In this document: in pieces, positions 38,782 to 59,385 of the stretch | Layout: each line of letters begins with the position of its first letter | Numbering within the stretch: the first letter of the stretch is position 1 | Source: Candidatus Doudnabacteria bacterium RIFCSPHIGHO2_12_FULL_48_16 | GTDB taxonomy: Bacteria; Patescibacteriota; Doudnabacteria; UBA920; O2-02-FULL-48-8 | Assembly (NCBI GenBank): GCA_001780035.1 | Contig: MFEY01000007.1 | Span: 6,212 to 70,211, forward strand | Length of the DNA: 64,000 bases | Reading direction: 5' to 3' | The notes under the pieces: generated by a model | What the model was told of the DNA's origin: nothing | Databases searched by the model: none | The model's input: only the letters and a program-made list of their open reading frames with translations | Made by a program: the position numbers and the translations under genes

Positions 38782-38945
38782 TCTTCTCCCCTTGCGGGAG
38801 AAGATGTCAGCCTTAGAGATTTTATTAAAGCCGGCTGACAGATGAGGGGTATCTAAGGGTTAGTAGGCTCCTAAATCACCCTCACCTGTCACTCAACGAA
38901 GTTGAGTGACATCCTCTCCCGTCAAGGGAGAGGATAAAACTGAAA
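38782..38945. repeat. SR-C structured repeat, copy 1, upstream of rpsE
   Basis: Modules: TCTTCTCCC-cttgc-GGGAGAAGA, tgtcagc…gctgacagatg, gaggggtatctaag…, aaatcaccctcacctgtc…, ATCCTCTCCC-gtcaa-GGGAGAGGAT. Confidence 0.6.
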
Positions 38946-38952
38946 GTTACGT

Positions 38953-39294
38953 TTAAAACTCCAATCCCGCAGCGCGAGCGCTGTCAGCTAATTCTTTTAC
39001 CCGGCCGTGATACTGGTATCCGCCGCGGTCAAACACAACTTTTTTAATCCCGGCCGCCTGGGCTTTCTGGGCGGCGAGCTTGCCGACCTCAACCGAGGCC
39101 TGCTTCTTGCTGTTTTTACCCTTAAGTTCCGAACTGGCGGCGCTGGCCATGGTCTTACCGTTTTCATCATCGATGAATTGCACGTAAATCTGGCTTAACG
39201 ATCGGAAAACATTCATGCGCGGAACTTGCGCCGTTCCTTTGACTTTCGAGCGAATCCGGTTATGTCTAAATTTTCTCTGGGTTCTTTTGTTCAT
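38953..39294 (-). CDS. rplR: 50S ribosomal protein L18
   Basis: …RPRLSVFRSLKHIYAQ…-type L18. 113 aa. Confidence 0.9.
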
Positions 39295-39314
39295 AGAATT
39301 ATAATTTCTAGATT

Positions 39315-39869
39315 CTATTTTCCGCCTCCGACGGCCTTAACGACTTTGCCCGCTTTACGCCGAATAACTTCATCGGAATATTTTATGCCTTTGCCCTTGT
39401 AAGGCTCCGGTTCCCGCTGGGAGCGCACAACAGCCGCAAACTGGCCGACCAACTGGCGGTCAATGCCGGCTACGGTCATAACGTTCTTTTCCACTTTGAC
39501 GTCCAGACCATCCGGGATTTCCATTTCAATCGGGTGCGAATAACCAAGATTCATGACCAATTTTTTTCCGGTCACCGCGGCTTTGTAACCGACCCCGTTG
39601 ATTTCCAAGGTTTTGCTAAACCCGGCGGTCACACCAGAGACCATATTGTTAATCAGCGCGCGCGATAATCCCCACAACGCCCGTTCGCTCTTTACCTTCT
39701 CGTTTTTTACGCTGACGACCAGATCCTGGCCATTCTGAGCAACAGTAACTTTGGGATGAACATGCAGCGTTAATTCGCCCTTGGGTCCTTTGACCTTCAG
39801 AGTCTGATCCTGAATCTCGGCGGTCACACCGGATGGCAGGGTTACTGGTTTTTTACCGATTCTGCTCAT
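39315..39869 (-). CDS. rplF: 50S ribosomal protein L6
   Basis: [33 protein letters not shown]…. Confidence 0.9.
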
Positions 39870-39887
39870 TTGATTCTTTCTTCTTGT

Positions 39888-40036
39888 TCTTCTCCCCTTG
39901 CGGGAGAAGATGTCAGCGTTATTTGGGTTATTATTAGTCGCTGACAGATGAGGGGTATCTAAGCTTACTTAGCTCTTAAATCACCCTCACCTGTCCCGAC
40001 TTTGTCGGGACATCCTCTCCCGTTGAGGGAGAGGAT
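39888..40036. repeat. SR-C structured repeat, copy 2, upstream of rplF
   Basis: About 96% identical over roughly 150 nt to copy 3 (40469-40617). Same module order, with an inner hairpin gtcccgac-tttgtc-gggac. Confidence 0.65.
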
Positions 40037-40052
40037 TAAGCTGAAAATTACA

Positions 40053-40451
40053 TTACCAAATTTGGCAGACAATTTCGCCGCCGACTTTGGCCTTGCGGGC
40101 TTCCTTGTCCGTCATTAATCCTTTCGAAGTCGAAACTACCGTGGTGCCCATGCTGCCCATGACACGCGGCAAATTTTCCCGGGAAGCATAAATACGCTGT
40201 CCCGGCTTGCTGACCCGTTTGATGCCGGAAATCGTCGGTTGGCCGGAGGCATCGTATTTGAGCTGCAGCATCAAATTTTTGAAGCCGCCGTCTTCCGACA
40301 CTTCCACTTTCTTAATCCAGCCTTCTGTTTCCAGAACTTTGGCCAGGCTGAGCTTGAAATTGGAGTGCGGCAAAGAAACTTCGCTCTTGCGGGCGAGCAA
40401 TGCATTGCGAATGCGGGTTAGCATATCTGAAATTGTGTCGTTCATCGTCAT
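40053..40451 (-). CDS. rpsH: 30S ribosomal protein S8
   Basis: MTMNDTISDMLTRIRNALLARK…. Confidence 0.9.
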   Translation of the reverse strand: MTMNDTISDMLTRIRNALLARKSEVSLPHSNFKLSLAKVLETEGWIKKVEVSEDGGFKNLMLQLKYDASGQPTISGIKRVSKPGQRIYASRENLPRVMGSMGTTVVSTSKGLMTDKEARKAKVGGEIVCQIW

Positions 40452-40468
40452 AAGGTTTTTTCTTATTT

Positions 40469-40617
40469 TCTTCTCCCCTTGCGGGAGAAGATGTCAGCGT
40501 TATTTGGGTTATTATTAGTCGCTGACAGATGAGGGGTATCTAAGCTTACTTAGCTCTTAAATCACCCTCACCTGTCCCGACTTTGTCGGGACATCCTCTC
40601 CCGTTGAGGGAGAGGAT
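40469..40617. repeat. SR-C structured repeat, copy 3, upstream of rpsH
   Basis: Near-identical to copy 2. It ends …caaggggagaagaaaataagaaaaaacctt just before the ATG. Confidence 0.65.
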
Positions 40618-40633
40618 TAAGCTGAAAATTACA

Positions 40634-40828
40634 TTACCAGGAAGATTTAACTATACCGGGGATTTCACCATTGGAAGCCAGTTCTCGGAAACAAATGCGG
40701 CAGATATCAAAATCGCGCATATAACCATGCTTGCGGCCACAGCGCCAGCAGCGGCGCACGACCCGGGTCGAATATTTCGCCTGGGTGCGGGATTTAAGAG
40801 ATTTTAAGTATTGAGCCTTGGTTGCCAT
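40634..40828 (-). CDS. rpsZ: 30S ribosomal protein S14, type Z (zinc-binding)
   Basis: 64 aa with CWRCGRKHGYMRDFDICRICFRE, a CxxC…CxxC zinc motif. Confidence 0.9.
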   Translation of the reverse strand: MATKAQYLKSLKSRTQAKYSTRVVRRCWRCGRKHGYMRDFDICRICFRELASNGEIPGIVKSSW

Positions 40829-40833
40829 AGTTG

Positions 40834-41370
40834 TTATTTGGAAAACGGGAACCCTAATGATTTAAGAAGCGCTAAAGCCTGTTTGTCATCGTCAGTCGAA
40901 GTTTGGATGTTAACTTCCAGGCCGAAAGTGTATTCAAAGTGTTCCCGCGTGGTCTCCGGAAATACAATCTGCTCCCGCAGACCAATGTTGTAGTTACCAT
41001 GGCCGTCAAATTTCTTGGGATCCAGGCCGCGGAAATCGCGAACGCGAGGAAGAGCAACCTTCACCAGTTTTTCCAAAAAATCATACATTCGATTGCCGCG
41101 CATGGTGACGACCAGACCAACTACCTGCCCCTCGCGGATTTTAAACCCGGCGATGGATTTCTTGGCCAGGGTTTTGACCGGAGTTTGGCCGGTAATGCGC
41201 TTGACGTCTTCCACAATCGCCTCGAGCATTTTGGCATCTTTCAATGTTTTACCGACGCCGACATTGACCACAACTTTCTGGATTTTCGGTACAGCCATAA
41301 CATTGCCCAAATGCAAATCCTGCATCAGGCTCTTGGTTACTTTTTCTTTGTATAAAGTCTTGAAATTCAT
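40834..41370 (-). CDS. rplE: 50S ribosomal protein L5
   Basis: MNFKTLYKEKVTKSLMQDLHLGNVMAVPKIQKVVVNVGVG…. Confidence 0.9.
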   Translation of the reverse strand: MNFKTLYKEKVTKSLMQDLHLGNVMAVPKIQKVVVNVGVGKTLKDAKMLEAIVEDVKRITGQTPVKTLAKKSIAGFKIREGQVVGLVVTMRGNRMYDFLEKLVKVALPRVRDFRGLDPKKFDGHGNYNIGLREQIVFPETTREHFEYTFGLEVNIQTSTDDDKQALALLKSLGFPFSK

Positions 41371-41476
41371 CCCGTTAGAAATAATAATTAGTTAATCGAC
41401 AATCTTTGTTATAGCCAGCCCGTTGAATATTATGCTCACTATTGGTTAAATATGCAAAATTTCTAACGGGATTCAT
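41371..41476 (-). mobile_element. IR-A element, copy 3, between rplX and rplE
   Basis: TAA-TGAAT-CCCGTTAGAAAT…TTAACTAATTATT-ATTTCTAACGGG-ATGAAT: a perfect 6-bp direct repeat ATGAAT flanks a 14-bp inverted repeat. Removing the element and one repeat gives TAATGAAT, the common TAATG stop-start overlap. Confidence 0.6.
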
Positions 41477-41781
41477 TAGATTACCTTTCCACACTTTTTA
41501 CATTTGCGAAAATTGCCGCGATCGGAAAGTTCGCGTCCGACCCGGGTCGGCTTGCCGCAGAGGGGGCAAATTAACTGAGTTTTGGAAGCATCGATCGCCC
41601 CAGGAAGTTCCAAGCGCTGTCCTTTTTCGCCCTGCCGTTTCGGCCGAGAAAATCGGACCCGGATGTGCAGCCCTTCGACGACCAGCTTGCCGGTTTTGGG
41701 AAACACGTCCAAAACCTTGCCGGTCTTACCCCGTTCTTTGCCTGCCAAAATTTTAACTGTATCGCCTTTCTTTATTCTCAT
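41476..41781 (-). CDS. rplX: 50S ribosomal protein L24
   Basis: MRIKKGDTVKILAGKERGKTGKVL… is the KOW motif. Confidence 0.9.
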   Translation of the reverse strand: MRIKKGDTVKILAGKERGKTGKVLDVFPKTGKLVVEGLHIRVRFSRPKRQGEKGQRLELPGAIDASKTQLICPLCGKPTRVGRELSDRGNFRKCKKCGKVI

Positions 41782-41794
41782 ATAATTCTTAATT

Positions 41795-41880
41795 TACGTC
41801 TACGAACTTACGAAATTTTTACGAAAATACGAAGTGAGCTAACCCTTTTCGTATGTTCGTATTCTGTTCGTAATTTCGTA
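41795..41880. repeat. Long imperfect hairpin built from iterated TACGAA (x4) and TTCGTA (x4) units, between rplN and rplX
   Basis: ctacgaacttacgaaatttttacgaaaatacgaag-tgagctaaccctt-ttcgtatgttcgtattctgttcgtaatttcgtag. The same TTCGTAAT unit is the recJ heptamer repeat. Confidence 0.55.
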
Positions 41881-41884
41881 GCCA

Positions 41885-42256
41885 TTACACTACTTCTTCG
41901 GCTAATGAAATAATTTTAGTGAACCCCAGATCGCGCAACTCCCTCGGCATCGGGCCAAAAATACGGGTGCCCCGCGGTTCCGGATCATCTTTGTTAACCA
42001 AAACTGCGGCGTTGTCATCAAATCTGATGTAAGATCCGTCAGAGCGGCGCACTTCCTTGCGGGTGCGGACGATCACGGCGTAAACCTTATCGCCCTTCTT
42101 GACTTGGCCTTTCGGACTGGCGATTTTGACGGAAGCGGAGATAACATCACCGATCGTCGCGAAACGGCGCTTGTTTTTCCCGTTCACGCTAAAAGCCGCG
42201 ATCTCGCGAGCGCCGGTATTATCTGCAACTTTTAAACGTGTTCTTAACTGTATCAT
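41885..42256 (-). CDS. rplN: 50S ribosomal protein L14
   Basis: [19 protein letters not shown]…. Confidence 0.9.
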
Positions 42257-42315
42257 AATTTATTAGGTTGTTGTCCGCCGGAGGCGGATCCGCCTTTGGC
42301 GGAAATCATAAAATA

Positions 42316-42588
42316 TTAAATCTTGCTGACAACTTTCCAATTAACGGTTTTACTGTAAGGCCGGGATTCTTCGATTATGACCTTATCGCCGATTTTCAAT
42401 CCTTCCAAATCGTTATGGGAAGGGTATTTCTTTGAAACCGTGTAGCGCTTGTGATACTTCGGGTGCACTTTCACGGAATCGACTTCCACGATGACCGTCT
42501 TGGTCATTTTGTCGGAAATAACCCTGCCGGTTAATTTTCTGTGAATCTTATTCACCCCGTTAGATTTTACTGAATTATTATCTGTCAT
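42316..42588 (-). CDS. rpsQ: 30S ribosomal protein S17, with about 10 extra N-terminal residues encoded by an IR-A2 element
   Basis: MTDNNSVKSNGVN-KIHRKLTGRVISDKMTKTVIV… The S17 core starts at KIHRKLTGRVISDK. An alternative GTG at 42553-42555 directly follows the inverted-repeat arm. Confidence 0.85.
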   Translation of the reverse strand: MTDNNSVKSNGVNKIHRKLTGRVISDKMTKTVIVEVDSVKVHPKYHKRYTVSKKYPSHNDLEGLKIGDKVIIEESRPYSKTVNWKVVSKI

Positions 42589-42637
42589 AATTTTCTGCTT
42601 ATCCCATTGATTTTTCTAAAAATCTAACGGGGTCAAT
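42555..42637 (-). mobile_element. IR-A2 element, copy 1, between rpmC and rpsQ
   Basis: Minus orientation: TAA-TATTGA-CCCCGTTAGATTTTT…TTATGACAGATAATAATTCAGT-AAAATCTAACGGGG-TGAAT. The interior is homologous to the gap copy. Confidence 0.55.
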
Positions 42638-42638
42638 A

Positions 42639-42821
42639 TTATTTGGAATTAATGAGAGTTAAAATGCGGGCAATGTCTTTCTTGATATTCTGGAGGGTGT
42701 GGCTGTTCTTAACTTCCTTGGAATGAATCTTGAAAGTCAGATCACGAACCTGTTCGCGCAGGCTCGCCAGCTGGCGGCCCAGTTCCTGTTCACCCATGGC
42801 TTGCAATTCTTTCATTTTCAT
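42639..42821 (-). CDS. rpmC: 50S ribosomal protein L29
   Basis: MKMKELQAMGEQELGRQLASLREQVRDLTFK…. Confidence 0.9.
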   Translation of the reverse strand: MKMKELQAMGEQELGRQLASLREQVRDLTFKIHSKEVKNSHTLQNIKKDIARILTLINSK

Positions 42822-42822
42822 C

Positions 42823-42924
42823 CCGTTAAAAATTAATAACTAAATTAATCATATCTGTGATCGATAATCCTGCTAATATACTTTGCCCATCAACGAACGT
42901 CTCAAAATTTCTAACGGGATTCAT
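42823..42924 (-). mobile_element. IR-A element, copy 4, between rplP and rpmC
   Basis: TAA-ttt-ATGAAT-CCCGTTAGAAAT…TTTAGTTATTAATT-TTTAACGGG-ATGAAA. Confidence 0.55.
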
Positions 42925-42927
42925 AAA

Positions 42928-43341
42928 TTAAGCCTGATCCCTTAAGACAAACCGAGTCTTGATCGGCAGTTTGTGCGAGGCCAAGCGCATCGCTTCCGCA
43001 GCCTGGTCGGCGGTTACCCCGTCCATTTCAAACATAATCCGGCCCTTCTGGACGACGGCGACGAAATGGTCAACAGCTCCTTTGCCGGAACCCATCGGGG
43101 ATTCATTACCGTGAGAAGTGATCGGCTTATCTGGAAAAATGCGGATCCAAATCTTGCCGCCGCGCTGGACATATCGGGTCATGGCTCGGCGCGCTGATTC
43201 AATCTGGCGCGAAGTCACCCAGCTGTTTTCCAGGGCTTTGAGGCCATAGCTGCCAAAGGCAACATAATTGCCGGACATGGCCTTGCCGGAAGACTTTCCG
43301 CGGTGGTGCTTTCGATGCTTGACCTTTTTAGGTATTAACAT
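42928..43341 (-). CDS. rplP: 50S ribosomal protein L16
   Basis: [16 protein letters not shown]…. Confidence 0.9.
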
Positions 43342-43453
43342 AGTAGTTTAACTTAAAATCAATAAATATTCTTAAATATTTCCGGTTCTCGCCCCGTACC
43401 GGAGCGAAGCGACTGGTGCGGGGTGTTTTACTTTCTTGGGAATCAACATAAAA

Positions 43454-44131
43454 TTATACGCCTTTCAGTCTAAGTTTATTACCGGTAAACACTTCACCTT
43501 TGTTAATCCAAACCTTGACTCCGATCGTGCCGTATGTGGTAAAGGCGGTGACGCGGGCAAAATCAATGTTGGCGCGCAGGGTGTGCAAGGGCAGTTTGCC
43601 TTTAAACAACCGTTCGCTGCGGGCGATTTCTGCGCCGCCCAACCGGCCGGCGCATTCGATTTTGACGCCCAAAGCCCCGGATTCCATAACCTGTTCAATG
43701 GCGCCTTTCATGGCGCGGCGAAAGGCAATCCGTTTTTCAATCTGATCCGCGATATTCTGCGCGACCACTTGAGACTGCAGATTGACGTCTTTGACTTCTT
43801 CGATGTTCAACTTCAAATCCAGCTTTTTTAAATTCAAGTGGGCCAAAATTTTCTTTTTTAAATCCTCAACGCCGCCCCCGCCCTTGCCGATAATCATTCC
43901 GGGCTTGGTGGTTTTGACCGTGACGCTCACGGTGGGACCGAAACGTTCGATATCGATCCGAACTAGGCCGCATTTTTTCAGTTGCAGCATCAAAAACGCG
44001 CGGATGCGGGTATCCTGTTCCAGCTTGGCGGCAAAACCGGTCTTGGAAAGCCATTTGGATTTCCAAGTGTCGGTAATGTTCATTCTTAAACTGTTGGCGT
44101 TGACTTTCTGTCCCATAAAATTTACCCCCAC
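43454..44131 (-). CDS. rpsC: 30S ribosomal protein S3
   Basis: MGQKVNANSLRMNITDTWKSKW… with the KH and S3-C domains. Confidence 0.9.
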   Translation of the reverse strand: MGVNFMGQKVNANSLRMNITDTWKSKWLSKTGFAAKLEQDTRIRAFLMLQLKKCGLVRIDIERFGPTVSVTVKTTKPGMIIGKGGGGVEDLKKKILAHLNLKKLDLKLNIEEVKDVNLQSQVVAQNIADQIEKRIAFRRAMKGAIEQVMESGALGVKIECAGRLGGAEIARSERLFKGKLPLHTLRANIDFARVTAFTTYGTIGVKVWINKGEVFTGNKLRLKGV

Positions 44132-44135
44132 ACCA

Positions 44136-44252
44136 AACGAGCTTCTGTTTCGGCTACGCCGAAACAGTTTACTCGCAGATTAGTTCGCTCGTTGATTATT
44201 GGTATTCTAATTATCATAAATTTATTATAACTGATTAAGCTCGTTCTGGTGT
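44136..44252. repeat. IR-flanked element between rpsC and rplV
   Basis: A 19-bp inverted repeat acccccacaccaaacgagc / gctcgttctggtgtgggggt encloses the hairpin ctgtttcgg-cta-cgccgaaacag. Confidence 0.5.
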
Positions 44253-44258
44253 GGGGGT

Positions 44259-44843: not shown

Positions 44844-44848
44844 AAAAG

Positions 44849-45217
44849 TTATTTTTTAACTCCTTCAGCCGGGGCTTTGGATGCTTCTTGGGCCCGCTTT
44901 TCGGCTTCGGCCGCAGCCATGGCTTCGTCTTTGGCCATTTTGCCGCCGTGTCTGGTAAATTTGCGGGTGGGGGAAAATTCGCCGAGCTTGTGGCCAACCA
45001 TATTTTCCGAGCAGAGAACTGAGATAAAAATCTTCCCGTTGTGCACGAGGAAAGTCATGCCGACCATTTCTGGAAAAATCGTGGAGTCGCGAGACCAGGT
45101 TTTGATCTCAACTTTAAGTTTTCCGCCGGAGGCGGATCCGCCGCTGGCGGAAACTTTCTGGATTTTGGCCAGCAGTTTCGCGTCGATAAAGGGTCCTTTT
45201 TTTAACGATCTTGACAT
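44849..45217 (-). CDS. rpsS: 30S ribosomal protein S19, with a C-terminal extension
   Basis: [21 protein letters not shown]…, followed by an Ala/Lys/Glu-rich tail. Confidence 0.85.
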
Positions 45218-45218
45218 A

Positions 45219-45764
45219 TTATTTAGTGAATTTAAAACTGGAAAGAATCAGCTTTATCTCGTCCAGATTATATTTCTGGGTCAAAATATAATAAATTGTA
45301 CCGTTATGTTTAACTAAAACTTCGTATGAGGAAACGCTCACACTGCCGTCTTCATTCGTTCCGGGATACTTTTCAACAAATGCATATCCATTTTCGCCGG
45401 CAAAAGTAATTGCGGATTCAACCGGTACGCTGCCACCCACTGCCTTCTTTAACTGCTGTCTGACGGTTTCAAAAGGCTTGGTTTCTATTCGGACAGCTAG
45501 ATAAACTGTCATATTGTCAGCATCAGATTTACTTTGCAAAACAGTGTTTTCAAAGTCAATTCCGTCACTACCGTTCAGTAAATATTTGTCAGCGGGATAT
45601 TCAAATTCAAAACCATACTTAGTATTTGTGTAGGTTTTCCAGGTCGCGGGGTCAGTATCAGTTTTAGTAATTGTTTGATTCTGGGCAGGCTGAACAGCGG
45701 CTTGCTGGTTGCAGGCGGCGGCGATGAACAACATTGAAATTGTCAGAAATAAAAGTTTCTTCAT
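45219..45764 (-). CDS. Lipoprotein of the W-TY-N-KYGFEF-YP family, paralog 5, inserted between rpsS and rplB
   Basis: Lipobox LFIAAAC, motif [21 protein letters not shown], and a C-terminus …[10 protein letters not shown]. Confidence 0.55.
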
Positions 45765-47011: not shown

Positions 47012-47650
47012 TTACTTTAGGTAAGTTTTTTCAATTATCGGCAGGGCATCCGCCGTTACGATCGCATCGGCTCGCATTAAATCCAAAACATTCAAATGAG
47101 TCGCGGGTAAAATTTTAACATTGGGCAAGTTGCGGGCGGCGTTTTCCAGTTCGGCGTTATGAGTGGCAATGATCAAAATAAATTTTTTGCCCAATCCGGC
47201 TTTGGCCGCGATAGTGTTAAGCTGTTTGGCCAATTCCCCGGTTTTCGCCGTCTGGCCGATTTTATCCACGACAATCAACTTGCTCTCCTTAAACTTGTCA
47301 GTCAAAACCGTAAACAGCGCTTTGCGCCAGGCGGAGCGGTTCATTTTGAGCGACCAGTCGCGATTATTGCGCGGTCCAAACGTAATGCCGCCGTGTCGCC
47401 ACAGTGGCGAACGAACCGAACCGGCGCGCGCCCGACCAGTGCCTTTTTGCTTCCACGGCTTTTTGCCGCTGCCGGCAACCTCGCCCATCATTTTGGTGTG
47501 GGCCCAAGGGCCGCGAACGTTGTTGCGCTGCGTTCTGACAGCCGCGTGAATTAAATTGGCGTCGAGTTTTTCAATGCCAAAAATCTTCGGATTCAAAGTG
47601 AGTTCCGAAATTTTCTCGCCGCTTTGGTTGTAGACTGAGGCCTTAGTCAT
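47012..47650 (-). CDS. rplD: 50S ribosomal protein L4
   Basis: MTKASVYNQSGEKISELTL…. The start is trimmed to the Met whose ATG overlaps the upstream stop as ATGACTAA. Confidence 0.85.
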   Translation of the reverse strand: MTKASVYNQSGEKISELTLNPKIFGIEKLDANLIHAAVRTQRNNVRGPWAHTKMMGEVAGSGKKPWKQKGTGRARAGSVRSPLWRHGGITFGPRNNRDWSLKMNRSAWRKALFTVLTDKFKESKLIVVDKIGQTAKTGELAKQLNTIAAKAGLGKKFILIIATHNAELENAARNLPNVKILPATHLNVLDLMRADAIVTADALPIIEKTYLK

Positions 47651-48242
47651 AGTTCTTGATAATGTTTGGATAATCGGTAAACACTCCGTCAATTCCCAAT
47701 GCTTTCAGCTTTTGAAATTGAGTGGGATTGTTGACGGTCCAGACAAATACTTTTTTACCCAAGCGCCGGAAGCGCTGAATCAACAGTTTCTTTGCCAGGA
47801 AAGTTTTTGGATGAATGGAATAAAGTTTGAGAACTTTATCAAGCTTCGGGATAAAGGGAATCAGAAACCAGTTGGCTTTTCCGATCACTAGTCCCAGCTG
47901 GACGCTTTCGTCCAAAGCCCTAATTTTCTGCAGTATCTTGGGATACTTAGAGGAAATCAGAACACTGGATGAAAAATTTTTAATGGCGCTTAATACTTCC
48001 CGCTCAAGCCCCGCTTGTTTCAGTTCCAGATTGACCGGAACTGTGATTACGCCCAAGGCTTCAGCCAAAGTCGTAAGATTCAATTTAGAAGAGTTATTGT
48101 GGCTTAAAACTATTTGGCCCGCTTTATCACGGCGCAAATCTGTTTCAACCATATCGACGCCCAACTCCACCGCCTTTTGAAAAGAACCGATCGTGTTTTC
48201 CTTCGCAAGCCCTGCTGCTCCCCGGTGCCCGATGATCAGCAT
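47643..48242 (-). CDS. Glycerophosphodiester phosphodiesterase family protein, inserted between rplC and rplD
   Basis: MLIIGHRGAAGLAKENTIGSFQKAVELGVDMVETDLRRDKAGQIVLSHN is the GDPD signature (HRG…E.D). Confidence 0.8.
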   Translation of the reverse strand: MLIIGHRGAAGLAKENTIGSFQKAVELGVDMVETDLRRDKAGQIVLSHNNSSKLNLTTLAEALGVITVPVNLELKQAGLEREVLSAIKNFSSSVLISSKYPKILQKIRALDESVQLGLVIGKANWFLIPFIPKLDKVLKLYSIHPKTFLAKKLLIQRFRRLGKKVFVWTVNNPTQFQKLKALGIDGVFTDYPNIIKNYD

Positions 48243-48243: not shown

Positions 48244-48834
48244 CTAGGATGCCTGAATCTTCACTATACCACCGTTGGCTCCCGGCACCGCCCCTTTCAC
48301 GGCGATCAGATTGCGCTTTACATCCACATCGATGACTTCGAGATTGGTAACGGTCCTAACCCCGGCCATATGGCCTGCCATACGCAATCCTTTGCGGACA
48401 TGCTGCGGGAACCGGCCGCCGATCGCACCGACGGCGCGGGGGTGGTCATGGCCGTGGGACGCCGGGGCGCCTTTGAAACCGTGGCGTTTAATCGGACCGG
48501 CAAAGCCGCGGCCTTTCATTTCGGCCGTGACTTTAACTTTGTCGCCGATGACAAAAGTATCAACTTTAATCTCCTGCCCTTTGGTAAAAATATCCTTGTC
48601 GGAAGTTCGAAATTCAGCCAAGGTTTTGAACGCCCCATGGCCGGCTTCGGCCTTGGTCGGATGCTTCTTTTTGCCAAAACCCACCTGCACCGCGGTATAT
48701 TTGTCCTTATCTGCAGTTTTGACCTGGACGACCATCACCGGACCGGCCTTCAACACGGTCACCGGCACGACTTTGCCGTCCTTGGTGAACATCTGCGACA
48801 TATTCAGTTTTTCCGCGATGATGAATTTGGCCAT
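48244..48834 (-). CDS. rplC: 50S ribosomal protein L3
   Basis: MAKFIIAEKLNMSQMFTKDGKVVPVTVLKAGP…. Confidence 0.9.
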   Translation of the reverse strand: MAKFIIAEKLNMSQMFTKDGKVVPVTVLKAGPVMVVQVKTADKDKYTAVQVGFGKKKHPTKAEAGHGAFKTLAEFRTSDKDIFTKGQEIKVDTFVIGDKVKVTAEMKGRGFAGPIKRHGFKGAPASHGHDHPRAVGAIGGRFPQHVRKGLRMAGHMAGVRTVTNLEVIDVDVKRNLIAVKGAVPGANGGIVKIQAS

Positions 48835-49039
48835 TTGATTCTCTTCAAATTGGTGCCACCCTCTCCCTCTGGGAGAGGGGCTGGGGGTGAGGGTTTACTT
48901 TCTTAAACAAAAACCATTCAGATCCCAGAGTAATTCAGAAACCTGAATGGTTCTTCTTGAGGATCGCCGTTGTCCATCTTGTCCGCCGAAGTTTTAGCGT
49001 AGGCGGAATCGGACCTGACACAATCTAAATATTTAATTT

Positions 49040-53671: not shown

Positions 53672-53738
53672 AATTTTAGATTAGAGCGTTCAGCGTAGAG
53701 CGTTCAGGATCTGCGCCCTGCACGCTACCCGCTGTACG

Positions 53739-54224
53739 CTATCTTCGCTGGAATCGGGCGAAGTGGGCGAACGCTTTGTTCGCTTCCGCCATTTTATGCA
53801 CGTCTTCGCGTTTTTTGATGGCGGCGCCCGTCTTGTTATAGGCTTCCATAAATTCCGTAGCCAATTTTTCGGCCATTGGCTTGCCCTTTTTGGATCGAGC
53901 CGCGTCAATCAGCCATTTCATGCCGAGGGCGGTTTTGCGGGGTTCCTGGACTTCCATCGGAACCTGGTAGTTGGCCCCGCCGATGCGGCGACCTTTAACT
54001 TCCACAATCGGGGTGACGTTGCGGATCGCCTGTTCGAACACAGCCTTCGGATCGGTCTTCATGTCCGCTTCGATTTTGTTGAACGCGTCATAAACAATCT
54101 TCATGGCCACGGTCTTCTTGCCCCGTTCCATAATGTAATTGATAAATTTGCCGATTTTCACGCTGTTGTATTTGTGATCAGCTTCGGCCAGATGTCGTTT
54201 ATAACTTCGAGCTTTACGAGGCAT
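53739..54224 (-). CDS. rpsG: 30S ribosomal protein S7
   Basis: MPRKARSYKRHLAEADHKYNSVKIGKFINYIM…. Confidence 0.9.
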   Translation of the reverse strand: MPRKARSYKRHLAEADHKYNSVKIGKFINYIMERGKKTVAMKIVYDAFNKIEADMKTDPKAVFEQAIRNVTPIVEVKGRRIGGANYQVPMEVQEPRKTALGMKWLIDAARSKKGKPMAEKLATEFMEAYNKTGAAIKKREDVHKMAEANKAFAHFARFQRR

Positions 54225-54254
54225 AATTTATAATTTAAAATCTATAATTTCTAA

Positions 54255-54671
54255 TTACTCAGTTCTCTTGGCGCCGTATTTGCTGCGGCCCTGTTTGCGG
54301 CCTTCCACTCCGGAGGCGTCTAATTTTCCGCGGACAATATGATAGCGCACGCCCGGCAAATCTTTGACGCGGCCGCCACGAATCATAACGACGGAATGCT
54401 CCTGCAAATTATGGCCGATACCCGGAATATAAGCGGTGACTTCCATGCCGTTAGACAGACGGACGCGGGCAATTTTCCGCAAAGCAGAGTTTGGCTTTTT
54501 TGGGGTGGTGGTGGTGACTTTGATACAGACCCCGCGCTTAAACGGCGAGCCTTTCGGCAATTGGTAAGGGCGCCCTTGAAGCAGGTTAAACCCGCGGTCC
54601 AGTGCCGGGGTTTTGGATTTGTAAACTTGCTTGATTCGTCCGTGACGGACTAATTGGTTGATAGTAGGCAT
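54255..54671 (-). CDS. rpsL: 30S ribosomal protein S12
   Basis: [27 protein letters not shown]…. The 32-codon upstream ORF extension is read-through of an SR-C-like repeat (cctctccccttgtgggagaggg…). Confidence 0.9.
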
Positions 54672-54988
54672 AATGGTTATCTTCAGATTGCCCCTCTCCC
54701 CTTGTGGGAGAGGGTGGTGCGAAGCACCGGGTGAGGGGTCTAAACCCTCTCTGTCGCTTCGCGACATCTCCCCCAGAGGGGGAGAATTATTTTGAACAAT
54801 TTACTGGCAATTAAAAACGGTCTTTTAGGACCGCGTGCAACTCAATCCGCCAGCAGGCGGATTGTCCGGTCGCTTGACCGGACCTTACGGCTTTAAAAGC
54901 TCAAAACAATTAATTCTTTTAATTATCCGCCTTCGCTAAAGCTTCGGCGGACTTCGCTGCCAAATCTTAACAGATTTTTCTTGTTATG

Positions 54989-55639
54989 TCAAATCCCAAT
55001 ATTGGATCCGAGCAGGAAATTAAGCAGGAAATTCAGCGGGGGTATTAATACTGTATTTAACAAACCGCTATAAAGAAATAAAATTATCAAAATAAAGCCG
55101 AATTTTTCCATAGACAAAATGGCATACATCCAATTCCGGTCCAGGAAGCCAAACAAACTTGCCAAAATTTTCGAGCCATCCAGTGGTGGAATCGGGATGA
55201 GGTTAAACAAACCAAGTACTAAATTCAGCAAAATCGTTTGAAATAATAATTCTTGGCCCATGTTTGATAAATTCGGACTCAACCGGTAAACAATCGCGGC
55301 CAGCACGGCCAAAACAAAATTTGTGGCTGGCCCGGCCAGCGAAACCAGAATCATATCCCATTTGAGGTTGCGCAAATTGCGGTAATCAACCGGCACCGGC
55401 TTGGCGGCGCCGAACAGAATCGGGGAATTGATCAGCAGTAAAAACACTGGTAAAAGAATCGAGCCGAACAAATCGATATGAGGTATAGGGTTTAGCGTCA
55501 GCCGGCCAGCATAGCGGGCCGTCGGATCCCCCAGTTTATCAGCCACCAGTCCGTGCGCAACCTCGTGAAAAATTACGGAAAACAGCAGAATGGCGACGTA
55601 GATTACAATTGATAGTGGATCCATAGGATTTATATGCAA
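54989..55639 (-). CDS. Site-2 protease family (M50) membrane metalloprotease, SpoIVFB-like
   Basis: The HEVAHGLVADKLGD HExxH motif sits in a transmembrane helix, there is a second LNLVLGLFNLIPIPPLDGS motif, and the protein has six transmembrane segments. Confidence 0.75.
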   Translation of the reverse strand: MHINPMDPLSIVIYVAILLFSVIFHEVAHGLVADKLGDPTARYAGRLTLNPIPHIDLFGSILLPVFLLLINSPILFGAAKPVPVDYRNLRNLKWDMILVSLAGPATNFVLAVLAAIVYRLSPNLSNMGQELLFQTILLNLVLGLFNLIPIPPLDGSKILASLFGFLDRNWMYAILSMEKFGFILIILFLYSGLLNTVLIPPLNFLLNFLLGSNIGI

Positions 55640-55785
55640 CCCTGAACTTGTTTCAGGGTCTCTTCGATGAGATCCTGACTTTCGTCAGGATTGCGAATGC
55701 GTAAGTCTTGCTTAATTTACTCAACCATGTTAATATATCCGAAGTTGCTCTAATTTTAACAAGCTTTAACCAGCCCTACAAATAT

Positions 55786-55977
55786 ATGGCAAGAGTCTGC
55801 CAAGTTTGCGGCAAAGGTTATCTCGCTACTTTTACCCGGTCGCATTCCATGCGCAAAACCAAAGTTCGGCTTTATCCCAATCTCCAGTGGATGAAGCTCG
55901 AACACGGCAAGCGCGTCAAGTCGTGCGTTAAATGCATCAAAACCCGGACTAAGCGGATGGCCGCAGTTGCTGCCTAA
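55786..55977 (+). CDS. rpmB: 50S ribosomal protein L28
   Basis: MARVCQVCGKGYLATFTRSHSMRKTKVRLYPNLQ… is collinear with L28 (MSRVCQVTGK…NRSHA…). Confidence 0.8.
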   Translation: MARVCQVCGKGYLATFTRSHSMRKTKVRLYPNLQWMKLEHGKRVKSCVKCIKTRTKRMAAVAA

Positions 55978-56046
55978 AAATCTCTAGAATTTCTAGAGAT
56001 TTTTTAATCTGTTCATAATATCCTCGCTATCGTTTATAATAACGAT

Positions 56047-57510
56047 ATGATCAAAACTTGGTTATCGCAAACTTCCATGTATCGCCTGATGATTTATTAT
56101 CTGGGGGCATTATTGCTCGCGGGCATGGCATTGAGCATGTTCGGCATCTTGCCATATGTCTGGTGGCACATCGGTTTTGATTTTGCCATCCTCTGGCTCT
56201 CCTGCGCCCTTACCAGCTGGTTATGCGCGAAGATTTTCAGAACCCAGCGGAACCCCGAATCAGAACTGATCACCGCGTTGATCCTGGCCTTAATTGTTGG
56301 GCCGCTGGATCCGTTAATTTATTCCAATTTATTGTTGCTCGCCGGGGTCGGGGCAATTTCACAGGCCAGCAAATATCTGCTGGCGATCAACAAAAAACAT
56401 ATTTTTAACCCGGCCGCGGTGGCCGTGCTGCTGGCGGCGCTGTTCCTGCATCAAGGCGCTTCGTGGTGGGTCGGTGACCGACACCTGCTCTGGATCATGG
56501 TAATTGGCGGCGCTCTGATTTTGCACAAATTGCGGTGGTTCCATCTAAGTCTGAGTTTTCTAATCCCTTATCTGGCCGTCCTTACAGCCCAGCAAGGATG
56601 GCGGCTCGATTATCTGGCCATCCTCTCGCCGCTGCTCTTTTTTTCAACAGTAATGCTGATTGAACCGTTAACCAGCCCGACTGGCCGACGAAAAAGGATC
56701 CTTTACGGGGTTTGTACCGCCTTGATCTTGGCCGGACTGATTAACTATTCCTCGCTGCCTTATACGCTCGAGCTCGCTTTGATAATAGCAAATTTTGCAT
56801 TTTGGTGGACCAAAATCAAGCAGCGAATAATTTTAAAATTTATAAACAAGGAGCCGGGAGCCAAGGACATCTATAAATTTTGGTTTGAACCGTTAAAAAA
56901 ATTCAGCTTCCGCCCCGGCCAGTTTCTCCAGTGGACCCTGCCACATTCGCGCGCCGATGACCGCGGCACCCGGCGCTGGTTTACTATTGCCTCGTCACCG
57001 ACCGAAGAAAAAGTATTGTTAACCACCAAATTTTCCGATCGATCGAGCACCTTCAAACAGGCGCTACGCGAGCTCAAGCCCGGCGCGGAGATTGCCACCA
57101 GTGATCCGGATGGCGATTTTATCCTGCCGATTGATCCGACAATGAAGCTAGTTTTTATCGCCGGCGGCATCGGCATCACTCCATACCGTAGCATGATCAA
57201 ATATTTGCTCGATACGAAGCAGTCGCGGGATATAATTATAATCTATGCGGCCAAAACGGCTGAAGAATTCAGCTTTAAAGAATTACTCGCCCAAGCAACC
57301 GAAATAGGACTGAATACTATTTACATTCAAACCGAAAAAACTGGTTTTATTACGCCGGAAATGATAAAAAAAGAAATTCCGGATTGGGCCCAGCGCACGT
57401 TTTACATTTCCGGCCCGGAACCCATGGTTGAAGCCTATGAAAAAATGCTAAAAGAAACCGGCATCAAGGATGCCGGAATCAGAACTGATTTCTTTCCAGG
57501 ATACGAATAA
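56047..57510 (+). CDS. Membrane-anchored ferredoxin-NADP reductase-type FAD/NAD(P)-binding oxidoreductase
   Basis: An N-terminal multi-helix membrane domain of about 270 aa. The C-terminus carries RPGQFLQW…RWFTIASSP (FAD-binding) and FIAGGIGITP (NAD-binding). Confidence 0.6.
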   Translation: MIKTWLSQTSMYRLMIYYLGALLLAGMALSMFGILPYVWWHIGFDFAILWLSCALTSWLCAKIFRTQRNPESELITALILALIVGPLDPLIYSNLLLLAGVGAISQASKYLLAINKKHIFNPAAVAVLLAALFLHQGASWWVGDRHLLWIMVIGGALILHKLRWFHLSLSFLIPYLAVLTAQQGWRLDYLAILSPLLFFSTVMLIEPLTSPTGRRKRILYGVCTALILAGLINYSSLPYTLELALIIANFAFWWTKIKQRIILKFINKEPGAKDIYKFWFEPLKKFSFRPGQFLQWTLPHSRADDRGTRRWFTIASSPTEEKVLLTTKFSDRSSTFKQALRELKPGAEIATSDPDGDFILPIDPTMKLVFIAGGIGITPYRSMIKYLLDTKQSRDIIIIYAAKTAEEFSFKELLAQATEIGLNTIYIQTEKTGFITPEMIKKEIPDWAQRTFYISGPEPMVEAYEKMLKETGIKDAGIRTDFFPGYE

Positions 57511-57918
57511 TTATTCAGTCACCGTAATCTTACCGAAAGAGCTGGAATTCAGATGGTCATGAAACTTCCAGCTGCCGACTTTTCCGAAAGTGAATGACCA
57601 AGTTTCGCCCGGAGCAATGGCGCGTTTGGAATCAAACTCCGGATAATCGGTGTGCGTCGGATGCGGCGCGGAAGCCGGCCAATGAGGCTTGCTGTCAGTG
57701 TTTACAAATTTAACCAAGTCGCCTTTTTTAATGGTCAGGGTGGCGGGATTAAATCCAGCGGCCATATTAATTTCGTATGTTTTGGGAGCCGCGGGTGCTG
57801 CTTGGTTTTGGTTGTTGTCTTGGCTGCTTGGGGGATTTGGATTGGCCGCCGGTTGGGATTTATTGCAGGCCGCGGCCAGAAGCGCCAGGCCCAGAAACAA
57901 AATTGCAAGTTTTCGCAT
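57511..57918 (-). CDS. Cupredoxin-like lipoprotein (paralog of 4618-5082)
   Basis: Lipobox LLAAAC, a Pro/Gln/Asn-rich linker, then WPASAPHPTHTDYPEFD…FHDHL. Confidence 0.5.
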   Translation of the reverse strand: MRKLAILFLGLALLAAACNKSQPAANPNPPSSQDNNQNQAAPAAPKTYEINMAAGFNPATLTIKKGDLVKFVNTDSKPHWPASAPHPTHTDYPEFDSKRAIAPGETWSFTFGKVGSWKFHDHLNSSSFGKITVTE

Positions 57919-57942
57919 ATTTTTTGTGGTTAATTGTTTTAA

Positions 57943-58338
57943 TTATAATTGAGAGGTACAGAAAGGACACCGAGTCGCGTTGATACTGACGCTGTTGCGG
58001 CAATAAGGACATTCCTTGGTGTGCACAATGTCGGATTGCCGGCGGCGAAACCGGTTCATTTGCTTGACCACGAGGAAAATCACAAAGGAGACGACGGTGA
58101 AATTGATAACCGTATTAATAAACGAGCCTAAGGCCAAGGTGTGTCGCCCGGGCAAACCGATGGTAATATTGTGGAAATCAACTTGGCCGATGATTAAAGA
58201 TAATATCGGGTTGAATAAATCATTGATAATCGAATTCACGACTTGGCCGAACGCGGCCCCGATAATTACGCCGACCGCCAGATCCAGGGCATTGCCTCTG
58301 ACCGCGAATTCCTTAAATTCTTTCCAGATTTGCCTCAT
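57943..58338 (-). CDS. mscL: Large-conductance mechanosensitive channel MscL, with a C-terminal CxxC…CxxC tail
   Basis: …[31 protein letters not shown]… is the MscL TM1 signature. The C-terminus [23 protein letters not shown] is zinc-ribbon-like. Confidence 0.8.
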
Positions 58339-59233
58339 GAGCTTCGCTGTTAACCAAGGTTAGTTTAGTAATTCCTATCAATAAAATCAAGCCGCCGATG
58401 ATCTGCATGCTCTCCAGCGTGGCACCCAAAAATATCCAGTTCACGATCACGGCCGCAACCGGAAAGGCCAGTTCGCAAAGCGTAGCCACGGCCGCCTTGG
58501 TCGAGCGCAGACCGTAATAGTAGAGCAAAAGCGAGGCAAATCCCGCAATAATCGCGGTTATAAACACAAACAGCCAATCCTTGCGCGTGGTCAAATTAAT
58601 TTGGGACAGCGTGTGGTAGTAAACGTTCATGAAAAATAGAAAGACCAACGCCGACAAAAACCGCAGGGATGTCATCATCTGGAAGCTTACTTTATTGAGC
58701 ACGTAGCGGCCAAAAACTGTGGAACCGCCCCAGAAAAACGCCGCGCCGAGCGCCAGCAGAACGCCAAGCGTGTCGGAATTCCACGTCCAGCCAGCCGGTT
58801 TGAAATCCGGAAACGTCACCAGGTAGGCGCCAAAAACAGCCACAACCGTCCATGTCCAGAAATCTTTCGATAATTTCTCACCCAACACCCATACTGCCAG
58901 TAGTATGGCGATCAGCGGCTGCAGCTTTTGCAGCAAAATTGCCACCGTGGGATTAAGATAGTGGAAGCTCTGAGTAAACAGCACTGTGGCCAAGGCCGAG
59001 CCGCCAAAACCGATAAAAATCACGGACAACCACTCGCGGCCGGATAAATTTTTTAACTCCCTCAGGCGCGGTAAGAAAATCGGCAGGACGAAAAACGCGA
59101 TCAGGATATGCTCCATGAGCACAATTACGGTCGAAGACAGCTGACCGCTTAAATATTTGCGAAACGGCGCGTCCACTGCCCAAAGCACCGCAGCCAAAGC
59201 CACCATCCAGGGACCAAAATTTTTATTAGTCAT
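58313..59233 (-). CDS. EamA/DMT-family transporter
   Basis: Ten transmembrane helices with duplicated EamA halves. The start is trimmed to MTNKNFGPW…; the upstream ORF extension is read-through of SR-C copy 4. Confidence 0.7.
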
Positions 59234-59243
59234 TTCAGATCTT

Positions 59244-59385
59244 TCTTCTCCCCTTGCGGGAGAAGATGCCCGCAGGGCAGATGAGGGGTAAAAAAAATAA
59301 TAGCCCTCGTTCGGGGCATAGCGAGAAATCACCCTCTCCTGTCCGGTCAGTTGACCGGACATCCTCTCCCGTCGAGGGAGAGGAT
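59244..59385. repeat. SR-C structured repeat, copy 4, upstream of the DMT transporter
   Basis: TCTTCTCCCCTTGCGGGAGAAGA…AAATCACCCTCTCCTGTCCGGTCAGTTGACCGGACATCCTCTCCCGTCGAGGGAGAGGAT: the same module order as copies 1-3, with the middle modules diverged. Confidence 0.55.

Follow-up and report, generated by a model that had tools for sequence, protein, structure and literature searches.

The 64-kb window (the whole stretch of Candidatus Doudnabacteria DNA analysed here) holds, within 20.7 kb spanning the str, S10 and spc operons and a riboflavin locus, six sites of one repeat, which we call SR-C: four co-oriented five-hairpin elements of ~150 nt (copies 1 to 4), a compact fifth copy upstream of rpsL and, upstream of rplC, a half-unit (Table 1). 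The sequence-only reading had located the four large copies and named the genes around them, and both hold: the H5 hairpin TCTTCTCCCCTTGCGGGAGAAGA matches exactly at 38782, 39888, 40469 and 59244, the H1 hairpin ATCCTCTCCC-N5-GGGAGAGGAT is found at 38911, 40012, 40593 and 59361 (0.00 matches expected by chance for either), and the genes are indeed those for S5, L18, L6, S8, S14 and an EamA/DMT transporter. Copies 2 and 3, thought to be about 96% identical, are in fact 100% identical over 172 nt (39887-40058 against 40468-40639), and copy 1 shares 81% identity with copy 2. Two further hairpin sites had been described as diverged. The one at 54690-54790 does lie before rpsL, but it is a genuine compact copy and the true rpsL ATG is at 54671; the other, at 48845-48900, was placed after rplC and turns out to be a half-unit upstream of that gene (ATG 48834). 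In the plus-strand reading the rplC unit is CCCTCTCCC-TCT-GGGAGAGGGG-CT-GGGGGTGAGGGT, with a short second loop like that of E. coli BoxC, and its tail (...TTTGAAGAGAATCAA) adjoins the ATG. Pyrimidine/purine hairpins of this kind occupy 11 positions, all of them perfect, with stems of 8-10 bp and loops of 3-5 nt; none was found elsewhere in the 64-kb window, and ~9 kb inspected past the window start contained no further units. Because two independent assemblies (L001 from NCBI and L002 from ENA) carry the identical sequence, the elements are not an assembly artefact.

Table 1. SR-C sites and neighbouring riboswitch features in the window; modules are given in plus-strand coordinates.
Feature	Position	Strand	Modules	Remark
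Copy 1 with tails	38763..38952	(-)	Right side: H5 38782-38804; loop-2 hairpin H4 38805-38839; right third block 38840-38851. Left side: left third block (complement) 38876-38887; H2 38888-38910; H1 38911-38935	Occupies the entire spacer from L18 stop to S5 ATG
Copy 2	39870..40052	(-)	Right side: H5 39888-39910; H4 39911-39945; right third block AGATGAGGGGTA 39946-39957; centre 39958-39980. Left side: left third block 39981-39992; H2 39993-40011; H1 40012-40036	Occupies the spacer from S8 stop to L6 ATG
Copy 3	40452..40633	(-)	H5 40469-40491; right third block 40527-40538; left third block 40562-40573; H1 40593-40617	Occupies the spacer from S14 stop to S8 ATG
rplC single canonical unit	48835..48894	(-)		Upstream of rplC
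Copy 5, compact doublet	54672..54790	(-)	Right side: H5 54692-54714; H4 54715-54728; right third block GGGTGAGGGGT 54729-54739. Left side: left third block 54745-54752; H2 54753-54766; H1 54767-54785	Upstream of rpsL
Copy 4, right single unit	59234..59290	(-)	Tail AAGATCTGAA; H5 59244-59266; loop-2 hairpin GCCCTGCGGGC; third block 59279-59290	ATG-proximal
Native FMN-riboswitch terminator (GCUAUGCCCCGAACGAGGGCUAUUAUUUUUUUU)	59291..59322	(-)		Between the two units of copy 4, not repeat; from alignment with relatives
Copy 4, left single unit	59323..59400	(-)	Third block AGGAGAGGGTGA (complement 59329-59340); H2 59341-59360; H1 59361-59385; tail CTTTCTGCTTA	Between aptamer and terminator
FMN riboswitch aptamer	59401-59548	(-)		Context, outside the repeat; Rfam RF00050, 87.7 bits against a gathering score of 66.2

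The repeating unit is ~60-80 nt long. Read on its purine-motif strand, it consists of a pyrimidine arm, a 4-5-nt loop and the complementary purine arm, followed by a small, variable and perfectly paired GC hairpin at the place where a 3-nt second loop is usual, and finally by a second purine block, which repeats the purine arm in mirror order apart from a single A-to-T change. Beside the pyrimidine arm lies a conserved, A/G-rich tail (WAAnCTGAAAR on the complementary strand). Two units in inverted orientation, tails out, make up the ~150-nt five-hairpin element and form its inverted ends, and its 'H3' hairpin is the pairing between the two third blocks; five of the six window sites are such inverted pairs, and copies 1-4 combine a GAGGA-type with a GAAGA-type unit. 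The loop-2 hairpins, 12-35 nt long in all sites except the rplC half-unit (CT), have many unrelated sequences and are always perfectly paired, and this hairpin-in-second-loop variant is also present in Proteobacteria and Phycisphaerae.

The third block of every unit mirrors its purine arm, which allows for purine-motif triads (G*G-C, A*A-T, T*A-T); in the window the mirror pairs are GGGAGAGGA with AGGTGAGGG and GGGAGAAGA with AGATGAGGG. As single-stranded DNA, a unit could fold back twice into a purine-motif triplex. Copy 4 retains the mirror in its third block (AGGAGAGGG) despite the resulting A-A mismatch in H3. Among 114 unique units, taken from loci picked by the hairpin alone, arm and third block were G/G in 103, A/A in 10 and discordant in one (Fisher p = 1.6e-13), a statistic inflated by sub-family structure since the counts are of sequences and not of independent events. 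Pairings were counted with module-wise scripts because a MAFFT alignment of the elements puts H2 and H4 out of register. As RNA, the sense strand of copy 2 is predicted to form five adjacent hairpins (-85.1 kcal/mol, z = -8.3), ~7 kcal/mol more stable than the antisense strand; the G-U pairs of H3 exist in the sense strand only.

Near relatives lack the elements at the orthologous sites. In relative L148, whose S8 is 88% identical at the amino acid level, all three r-protein junctions are empty, reading TAA-TTT-ATG at L18-S5, TAA-TTAT-ATG at S8-L6 and TAA-ATTAT-ATG at S14-S8. The r-protein spacers are 3-5 nt long in L148 and 0-14 nt long in L149; in L150 only S8-L6 holds an insert, and that one is unrelated. 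Such hairpins were absent from the 20 kb inspected in each of L149 and L150. Units were probably inserted, singly or paired, into 3-5-nt intercistronic spacers of this Doudnabacteria lineage after the split from relatives that are ~80% identical in nucleotide sequence. Comparison of filled and empty sites at the three r-protein junctions and at copy 4 revealed no convincing target-site duplication. Because intercistronic spacers are so short, any tolerated insertion would necessarily come to lie beside a start codon.

Copy 4 is found directly downstream of an FMN riboswitch aptamer, a context that the sequence-only reading had overlooked and near which there is a promoter-like TTGCCT-17-TATAAT at 59584-59556. 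Relatives L151, L152 and L153 have in common a TGC..ATGCCC...GGG plus T-run right behind the aptamer, and on this alignment 'copy 4' is two single units on either side of a native FMN-riboswitch terminator. The units behave independently: L152 has the right unit alone, after the terminator and identical over 48 nt, L153 has no unit there, and the window has one per side. On either side of the left unit in copy 4 lies an imperfect TTTCTGCTTA/TTTCTCGCTA repeat, but the first half of it resembles the tail that all copies share. A minimum free energy fold of the whole riboswitch plus copy 4 region broke up the aptamer and was left out.

A scan of contigs with a generic hairpin pattern revealed that the family crosses phyla, with at least 120 loci in many of them; among the matches listed, 28 of 120 loci carry the full doublet (Gamma- and Alphaproteobacteria, Dehalococcoidia, Phycisphaerae and Binatia). 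The right unit occurs on 59 Rhizobium plasmids with 84-94% identity over 45-48 nt, and on the chromosome of Dyella marensis with 89% identity over 45 nt. A phage vector is unsupported, as a scan of IMG/VR for the right unit gave 0 matches. Units also lie in frame inside bona fide genes, encoding GT2, GT4 (two insertions) and MnmE, where they add the peptide YPSS..SSP..GEE. Position and orientation are uniform in Doudnabacteria-like contigs, in which all copies (the six window sites, L132, L140 and L152) are co-oriented with, and just 5' of, the downstream gene. In other phyla the orientation is mixed, and in the high-GC contigs L123, L136 and L139 a unit is antisense to both neighbouring genes; strict co-orientation is thus limited to CPR-like contigs.

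The sequence-only reading had left two options, a repeat family sitting in 5' leaders or a cis-regulatory leader whose hairpin hides the Shine-Dalgarno sequence, through which S8, L6 or S5 might, for instance, regulate their own synthesis. Our data support the former, as a dispersed repeat family landing in intercistronic spacers. Although the elements are in the 5' leaders of r-protein genes, and the purine run is one strand of a perfect 9-bp stem, we regard a regulatory leader as very improbable. The empty orthologous junctions already largely refute it, and the same element precedes unrelated genes (the EamA transporter gene, ligA and a pilC-like gene), lies within ORFs and is spread across distant phyla. 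At the Rfam gathering score no family, r-protein leaders included, matched the element and only the adjacent FMN aptamer was found, with chance-level matches alone at E <= 10. Nor does the proposed Shine-Dalgarno stand up, and it was rejected as a functional site: counted from the ATGs at 38762, 39869, 40451 and 59233, the purine arm stops 19, 18, 17 and 10 nt upstream, and in three of the four copies it thus lies 17-19 nt away where about 5-10 nt is needed. A GGAG/GAGG/AGGA core at -18..-4 is present in only 2 of the 36 genes of the region, whose leaders are 70% A+T. The copies were also rejected as intrinsic terminators: copies 1-3 contained nothing resembling a promoter or terminator in a consensus scan, and the U run of copy 4 is the native riboswitch terminator.

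A repeat of selfish origin might nonetheless have been domesticated, its five-hairpin module now acting on the RNA as punctuation: as an intercistronic stabiliser or processing site, like REP/BIME and Correia/NEMIS, or as an insulator replacing translational coupling by independent, Shine-Dalgarno-less initiation on the A-rich tail. The uniform orientation, 5' position and 20.7-kb clustering of the copies could reflect selection for such an RNA-level role and, like the better fold of the sense RNA, argue against a selfish reading. Between the Doudnabacteria-like copies and the start codon that follows there are 10-19 nt (60 nt in L140), the clustered ones lie in highly expressed operons, the tail is conserved and A/G-rich, and BoxC and BIME have been reported to be transcribed in E. 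coli (PMC3738161). We consider domestication unlikely, however, as the operons of the nearest relatives work with 3-5-nt spacers, spacers of this length force any tolerated insertion next to a start codon, and units are tolerated within ORFs and antisense to both neighbours. Scarcely credible to us is a REPIN/RAYT system or classical MITE, that is inverted REP doublets moved in trans by a Y1 (HUH) or IS-encoded transposase. Inverted doublets with hairpin-containing arms do resemble REPINs, the strand and orientation bias of the CPR copies would fit single-strand transposition, and in L016 one unit has been interrupted by an IS that has an rve-type integrase. Against this, Pfam scans of about 30 window ORFs returned housekeeping genes and neither RAYT nor any other transposase, the scanned ORFs and the filled and empty sites gave no clear target-site duplication or other mobilisation signature, the mirror third block is not a REP feature, and REPs are normally species-specific whereas the SR-C unit is near-identical across phyla.

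The architecture and mirror covariation of the family, its cross-phylum spread, the filled and empty sites, the independent half-units and the in-frame insertions established above make it likely, in our judgement, that SR-C is a selfish, non-autonomous repeat of intergenic DNA that belongs to the BoxC / PIT / 'TM' (intrastrand-triplex motif) class, present as lineage-specific insertions in Candidatus Doudnabacteria (CPR) and with members in many other phyla. For such a selfish repeat, the constraint would act on single-stranded DNA, as triplex plus hairpin, during copying or mobilisation; against this, the E. coli triplex was seen in isolated single strands only, and neither duplex DNA nor in vivo footprinting showed it (PMC4666352). 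That the about 30 scanned ORFs and the filled and empty sites gave no transposase, clear target-site duplication or other mobilisation signature also speaks against the selfish reading. Effects on expression would then be incidental. A co-transcribed copy may be tolerated since it brings no promoter-like or terminator-like site by consensus scan, would fold on itself within the mRNA, and leaves a 10-19-nt A-rich, unstructured leader before the start codon in a host that mostly does without Shine-Dalgarno sequences. A bolder version, which we hold to be possible if unlikely, is that the ~70-nt unit is an active, pan-bacterial, non-autonomous mobile element with the single-stranded triplex fold as its recognition feature, moved one unit at a time between CPR, Proteobacteria and Planctomycetes by undescribed machinery and landing at gene boundaries or in frame. 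It would now be remodelling the r-protein operons and a riboswitch expression platform of Doudnabacteria, possibly as a portable Shine-Dalgarno-less leader.

These results remove a false lead, a new r-protein regulatory RNA in CPR bacteria, and tie SR-C instead to a long-known and unexplained repeat class, which they extend to CPR, Chloroflexota and Planctomycetota. The unit of this class turns out to exceed its earlier description, as it includes a cassette hairpin in loop 2 together with a conserved tail, and single units act independently and can lie in frame within genes. Near-identity over 45-48 nt across phyla is difficult to account for unless the modules spread horizontally or have a trans-acting machinery in common. 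The natural filled and empty sites, including the insertion pair around a riboswitch terminator, make mobility and expression effects experimentally testable.

Several known systems share parts of this picture. Like r-protein autoregulatory leaders, such as the S8 site in the spc mRNA, SR-C places structured RNA before r-protein cistrons; those leaders, however, are kept by related species, mimic binding sites on rRNA and each belong to a particular gene, none of which holds for SR-C. REP/BIME and REPINs are likewise inverted doublets of small palindromic units in operon spacers, co-transcribed and able to stabilise mRNA; REPINs are REP doublets that form hairpins and are mobilised by RAYTs. 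REPs have no mirror purine third block, are species-specific and are RAYT-linked; for SR-C neither species specificity nor, in the about 30 ORFs scanned, a RAYT gene was seen. Rickettsia palindromic elements, reportedly described by Ogata et al. in 2000, are selfish, about 100-150 bp long and able to insert in frame into protein-coding genes and be translated; their sequence family is unrelated to SR-C, lacks a triplex-type mirror block and is not known outside Rickettsia. The Correia/NEMIS MITEs of Neisseria are ~100-160 bp long with inverted ends and are co-transcribed, their RNA hairpins serving as processing sites, and so model what the RNA-punctuation alternative would look like. They combine classical terminal inverted repeats and a TA duplication with promoter and IHF sites; the pyrimidine/purine hairpin and mirror block of SR-C are missing from them. 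NEMIS are listed in PMC2267715.

The closest resemblance is to BoxC/PIT/TMECO. This intrastrand-triplex motif of E. coli and other Proteobacteria was reportedly described by Bachellier et al. and by Hoyne & Maher in 2000. [quoted passage not shown] 2015, PMC4666352). SR-C differs in that its second loop is a 12-35-nt perfect hairpin in five of six sites and not 3 nt, its arms are GAGGA/GAAGA variants, its unit is extended by the conserved CTGAAA tail, its host is a CPR bacterium, its copies, all co-oriented, lie in r-protein operons and a riboswitch platform, and related units are found in frame inside genes. No promoter or terminator activity is reported for BoxC/PIT/TMECO, and the consensus scan of SR-C copies 1-3 found no site of either kind. 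Both are multi-copy and intergenic, often as inverted pairs of two non-identical types, and their presence or absence differs among close relatives. In both, a C-rich arm (~9 nt in TMECO) is followed by a short loop, the G-rich complement of the arm and a second, mirror-related G-rich block; each SR-C end matches the TMECO logic, and the BoxC doublet at E. coli hrpB-mrcB has the same layout as SR-C, without the loop-2 hairpins.

All four copies of SR-C, an element of about 150 nt with five hairpins (H1 to H5 in gene orientation), were recovered at exactly the positions given by the sequence-only reading. The H5 hairpin, TCTTCTCCCCTTGCGGGAGAAGA, and the H1 hairpin, ATCCTCTCCC-N5-GGGAGAGGAT, each occur four times in the window, against a chance expectation of 0.00. 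The copies are flanked by L18/S5, S8/L6, S14/S8 and an EamA (DMT) transporter, minus-strand genes throughout. Copies 2 and 3 had rightly been called near-identical, the figure being 100% over 172 nt and not about 96%; identity between copies 1 and 2 is 81%. For the copy 2 sense RNA the computed fold (-85.1 kcal/mol, z = -8.3) is a row of five directly adjoining hairpins, with -77.9 kcal/mol for the antisense, and the element sequence is the same in the NCBI and ENA assemblies. A whole-window scan for Py/Pu hairpins returned only copies 1-4 and two further sites: the SR-C-like hairpins claimed before rpsL are indeed present as a compact doublet, and the one placed after rplC exists as a single unit, but before that gene. 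No Py/Pu hairpin unit was found in the window's first 38 kb or in the ~9 kb beyond the window start. The mechanical ORF of S12 (170 aa, 54255-54767) is over-extended through the compact rpsL copy (copy 5), the canonical start MPTINQLVR being at 54671.

Positions and layouts of the repeats and associated features (window coordinates unless a locus is named)
Feature	Position	Sequence or remark
SR-C copies 1 to 4	38782-38945, 39888-40036, 40469-40617, 59244-59385	
H1 (gene orientation)		AUCCUCUCCC-loop-GGGAGAGGAU
H2 (gene orientation)		perfect hairpin, variable, GUC...GAC
H3 (gene orientation)		AGGUGAGGGUGA ... CCCCUCAUCU
H4 (gene orientation)		perfect hairpin, variable
H5 (gene orientation)		UCUUCUCCC-GCAAG-GGGAGAAGA; ATG 10-19 nt further on
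Left unit, sense strand		CCUCUCCC-loop-GGGAGAGGA [H2] AGGTGAGGG
Right unit, plus strand		CTTCTCCC-cttgc-GGGAGAAGA [H4] AGATGAGGG
Compact doublet before rpsL	54692-54785	rpsL ATG at 54671
Single unit before rplC	48859-48894	rplC ATG at 48834
FMN aptamer, complete	59401-59548	87.7 bits; copy 4 directly 3-prime
Empty site, relative L148		S14-TAA-ATTAT-ATG-S8
Empty site, relative L148		S8-TAA-TTAT-ATG-L6
Empty site, relative L148		L18-TAA-TTT-ATG-S5
In-frame units, low-GC metagenome contigs	L130 ~1017-1085; L124; L131 ~3029-3100	two sites in L124
Second repeat family	14950-15061, 36324-36434, 41366-41476; L140 5661-5770	
Second repeat family, partial copies	20754-20782, 42896-42924, 42540-42591	
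Third small repeat	28641-28679, 42268-42306, 45116-45154	one copy in S17-L14 spacer
GDPD gene	47643-48242; L149 3559-4224; L150 1910-2503	

Each end of the element is one triplex-motif unit, as known from the BoxC repeat of E. coli, which was rediscovered as the PIT element and later named the TMECO intrastrand-triplex motif, with the consensus CCCTCNCCC-N3-6-GGGNGAGGG-N3-GGGNGAGGG (Holder et al. 2015, PMC4666352). A unit comprises a Py/Pu hairpin, a second loop and a third block, which is the purine arm mirrored with one A-to-T change; two inverted units, the left at the H1 end and the right at the ATG-proximal H5 end, form one element, and H2 and H4 sit in loop 2 of their respective units. 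An antiparallel purine-motif triplex needs just such a mirrored block. The third block tracks the arm, GAGGA occurring with AGGTG and GAAGA with AGATG, and at the variable arm position 113 of 114 unique units agree with the mirrored partner (103 G/G, 10 A/A, 1 discordant; Fisher p = 1.6e-13), these units coming from loci picked by the hairpin alone and being related to one another, so that they do not count as independent events. The mirror rule holds in each of at least four arm variants, and a direct repeat of the arm, which would permit an alternative hairpin, is not the pattern in the units. Copy 4 has a perfectly mirrored third block, AGGAGAGGG, although this puts an A-A mismatch into H3; since the mirror is kept despite the mismatch, H3 looks like a by-product of paired inverted units and not the constrained feature. 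Purine-motif triplexes are not formed in RNA (PMC4666352), and the conserved mirror block would make sense as a constraint on single-stranded DNA, not on RNA. Across loci H2 and H4 take many unrelated sequences, with pairing always perfect and a TG start almost always. An alignment of eight copies further revealed a conserved tail, WAAnCTGAAAR, after the hairpin's purine arm, on the strand opposite to that of the triplex motif; the unit therefore exceeds the published 37 nt.

Copy 4 had been described as an SR-C copy differing in the middle. The difference is real, but this is not one element, as its middle is the expression platform of an FMN riboswitch, whose aptamer has a promoter-like site upstream. 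Among relatives with the orthologous riboflavin kinase-EamA spacer, L153 has the aptamer, a short terminator (TGCTTATGCCC...GGG and a T-run) and the ATG, and L152 has in addition a right unit only, between terminator and ATG, with 48 nt identical to the window's right unit though the genes are ~73% identical; L151 carries unrelated repeats at this spot. In the window a left unit follows the aptamer, and after it come the same terminator (59291-59322), a right unit and the ATG. Thus, the relatives' spacers identify copy 4 as two single units around a native terminator, which shows that insertion proceeds by single units and that doublets can arise through paired insertion. An imperfect direct repeat, TTTCTGCTTA / TTTCTCGCTA, lies around the left unit (59386-59399, 59323-59332) and may be either a target-site duplication or a coincidence of the element tail with native sequence. 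In L151, the closest relative, ~200 nt of other hairpin repeats (830-1028) separate the riboswitch terminator from the EamA ATG and include a CGAAGCAATCT...AGATTGCTTCG type also present at window 18003-18052 and 29344-29393; this spacer appears to be a hot spot for differing repeat families.

At the r-protein junctions, the spacers of 182-190 nt are filled entirely by the element and its tails. The same junctions are empty in L148, the nearest relative found (S8 88% identical in amino acids, genes ~76-81% in nucleotides), and the 20 kb r-protein operons of two ~75% relatives (L149, L150) contain no Py/Pu hairpins, contrary to the suggestion of a regulatory leader. Comparison of filled with empty sites revealed no clear target duplication, and no mobilising gene was found among the ~30 window ORFs scanned. 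The proposal that the H5 purine run is a sequestered Shine-Dalgarno fared no better: among 36 genes from this part of the window, only two have a GGAG/GAGG/AGGA core at -18 to -4, and one of these, EamA, owes it to the H5 arm itself; in three copies 17-19 nt separate the end of the arm from the ATG. A+T content is 70% in the 20 nt preceding start codons versus 53% overall, and, judging from these upstream regions, the organism evidently initiates mostly without Shine-Dalgarno sequences. The element leaves an A-rich unstructured tail ahead of the ATG, and no promoter-like or terminator-like sites lie within copies 1-3.

No Rfam family covers the element. A generic hairpin pattern matched at least 120 loci from many phyla in GTDB species genomes, and the larger layout (hairpin, GGTGAGGG, variable centre, CCCTCACC, hairpin) was present in 28 of 120 loci examined, among the matches listed. 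The full H1-H2-H3-H4-H5 order is seen in a Phycisphaerae MAG (L068); in a Dehalococcoidia chromosome (L016) the units are arranged in tandem and lack H2 and H4, and an IS interrupts one of them. This latter array (OZ220748.1, L016 1-2100) holds at least five doublet units of ~285 nt, the first of which is disrupted by an IS with an rve-type integrase gene, indicating that triplex-motif repeats can be IS targets. Scanning metagenomes with a right-unit-specific pattern yielded 25 loci. In Doudnabacteria-like contigs the element precedes ligA and a pilC-like gene, and in three low-GC contigs single units are in frame within bona fide GT2, GT4 (two insertions) and MnmE genes, encoding the peptide YPSS(V/A)xxxxSSPxxGEE. 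The right unit also occurs on 59 Rhizobium plasmids (84-94% identity over 45-48 nt) and in the Dyella marensis chromosome (89% over 45 nt); the same pattern had no match in IMG/VR.

The reading with the best support is that of a selfish repeat of the BoxC/PIT/TM kind, non-autonomous and of a variant whose loop 2 carries a cassette hairpin; it would recently have invaded this lineage's tight intercistronic spacers. Of the two options originally offered, the repeat family stands and the regulatory switch falls, a dedicated r-protein autoregulatory leader being essentially excluded. A secondary role at the RNA level, as stabiliser, processing site or translation decoupler, might be argued from the strict co-orientation of all Doudnabacteria-like copies with transcription, their clustering in highly expressed operons and the better fold of the sense strand; spacers of 3-5 nt force closeness to the ATG, but not orientation. 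However, orientation relative to genes is mixed in high-GC contigs, and we consider such a role rather unlikely.

The window contains other repeats too. A second family of ~110 nt has inverted ends (..CCCGTTAGAAAT ... ATTTCTAACGGG...) with ATGAAT/TTCAT repeated at both. Its copies stop precisely where a start codon begins, those of L5, L29 and the gene at 36328 being examples, and it resembles a further MITE-like element that has invaded these operons. A third, small repeat is a double hairpin, CCGCCnnnGGCGG-ATCCGCCnnnGGCGG. Between 38.7 and 49.4 kb, spacers of 50-205 nt are found at L24-L5, L14-L24, S17-L14, L29-S17, L16-L29, S3-L16, L22-S3 and S10-L3, and most of these junctions measure 1-14 nt in L149 (L150 was also compared); several repeat families, SR-C being one, have colonised the whole r-protein cluster. 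The S10 operon also holds a glycerophosphodiester phosphodiesterase (GDPD) gene between rplC and rplD, kept in three Doudnabacteria genomes. A PsbP_2-like gene (181 aa, 45219-45764) is located between rplB and rpsS, an interval with three extra ORFs, one DUF5818, in L150 (4410-6114) and none in L149. PsbP-like paralogues near 18322-18924, 22523 and 24316 account for repeat family D3. A 159-aa ORF at 13987-14463 has a PaaX_M / Cas2-like domain, with no CRISPR array noticed nearby.

The element is of interest chiefly because its unit is nearly identical across phyla, because half-units behave independently, because insertions occur in frame, and because the units around the riboswitch terminator constitute a natural experiment. 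Its known counterpart, TMECO, has 3610 copies across 262 proteobacterial genomes and 23 in MG1655, where five pairs are inverted, always type A with type B; a stable triplex was seen with isolated single strands but neither in duplex DNA nor in vivo, and the motif is without promoter or terminator activity and associated with local genomic variability (PMC4666352). The E. coli hrpB-mrcB doublet has a layout like that of the window's element, but without H2 and H4; the mixed orientation in high-GC contigs is as reported for E. coli, and the in-frame units within genes recall Rickettsia palindromic elements.
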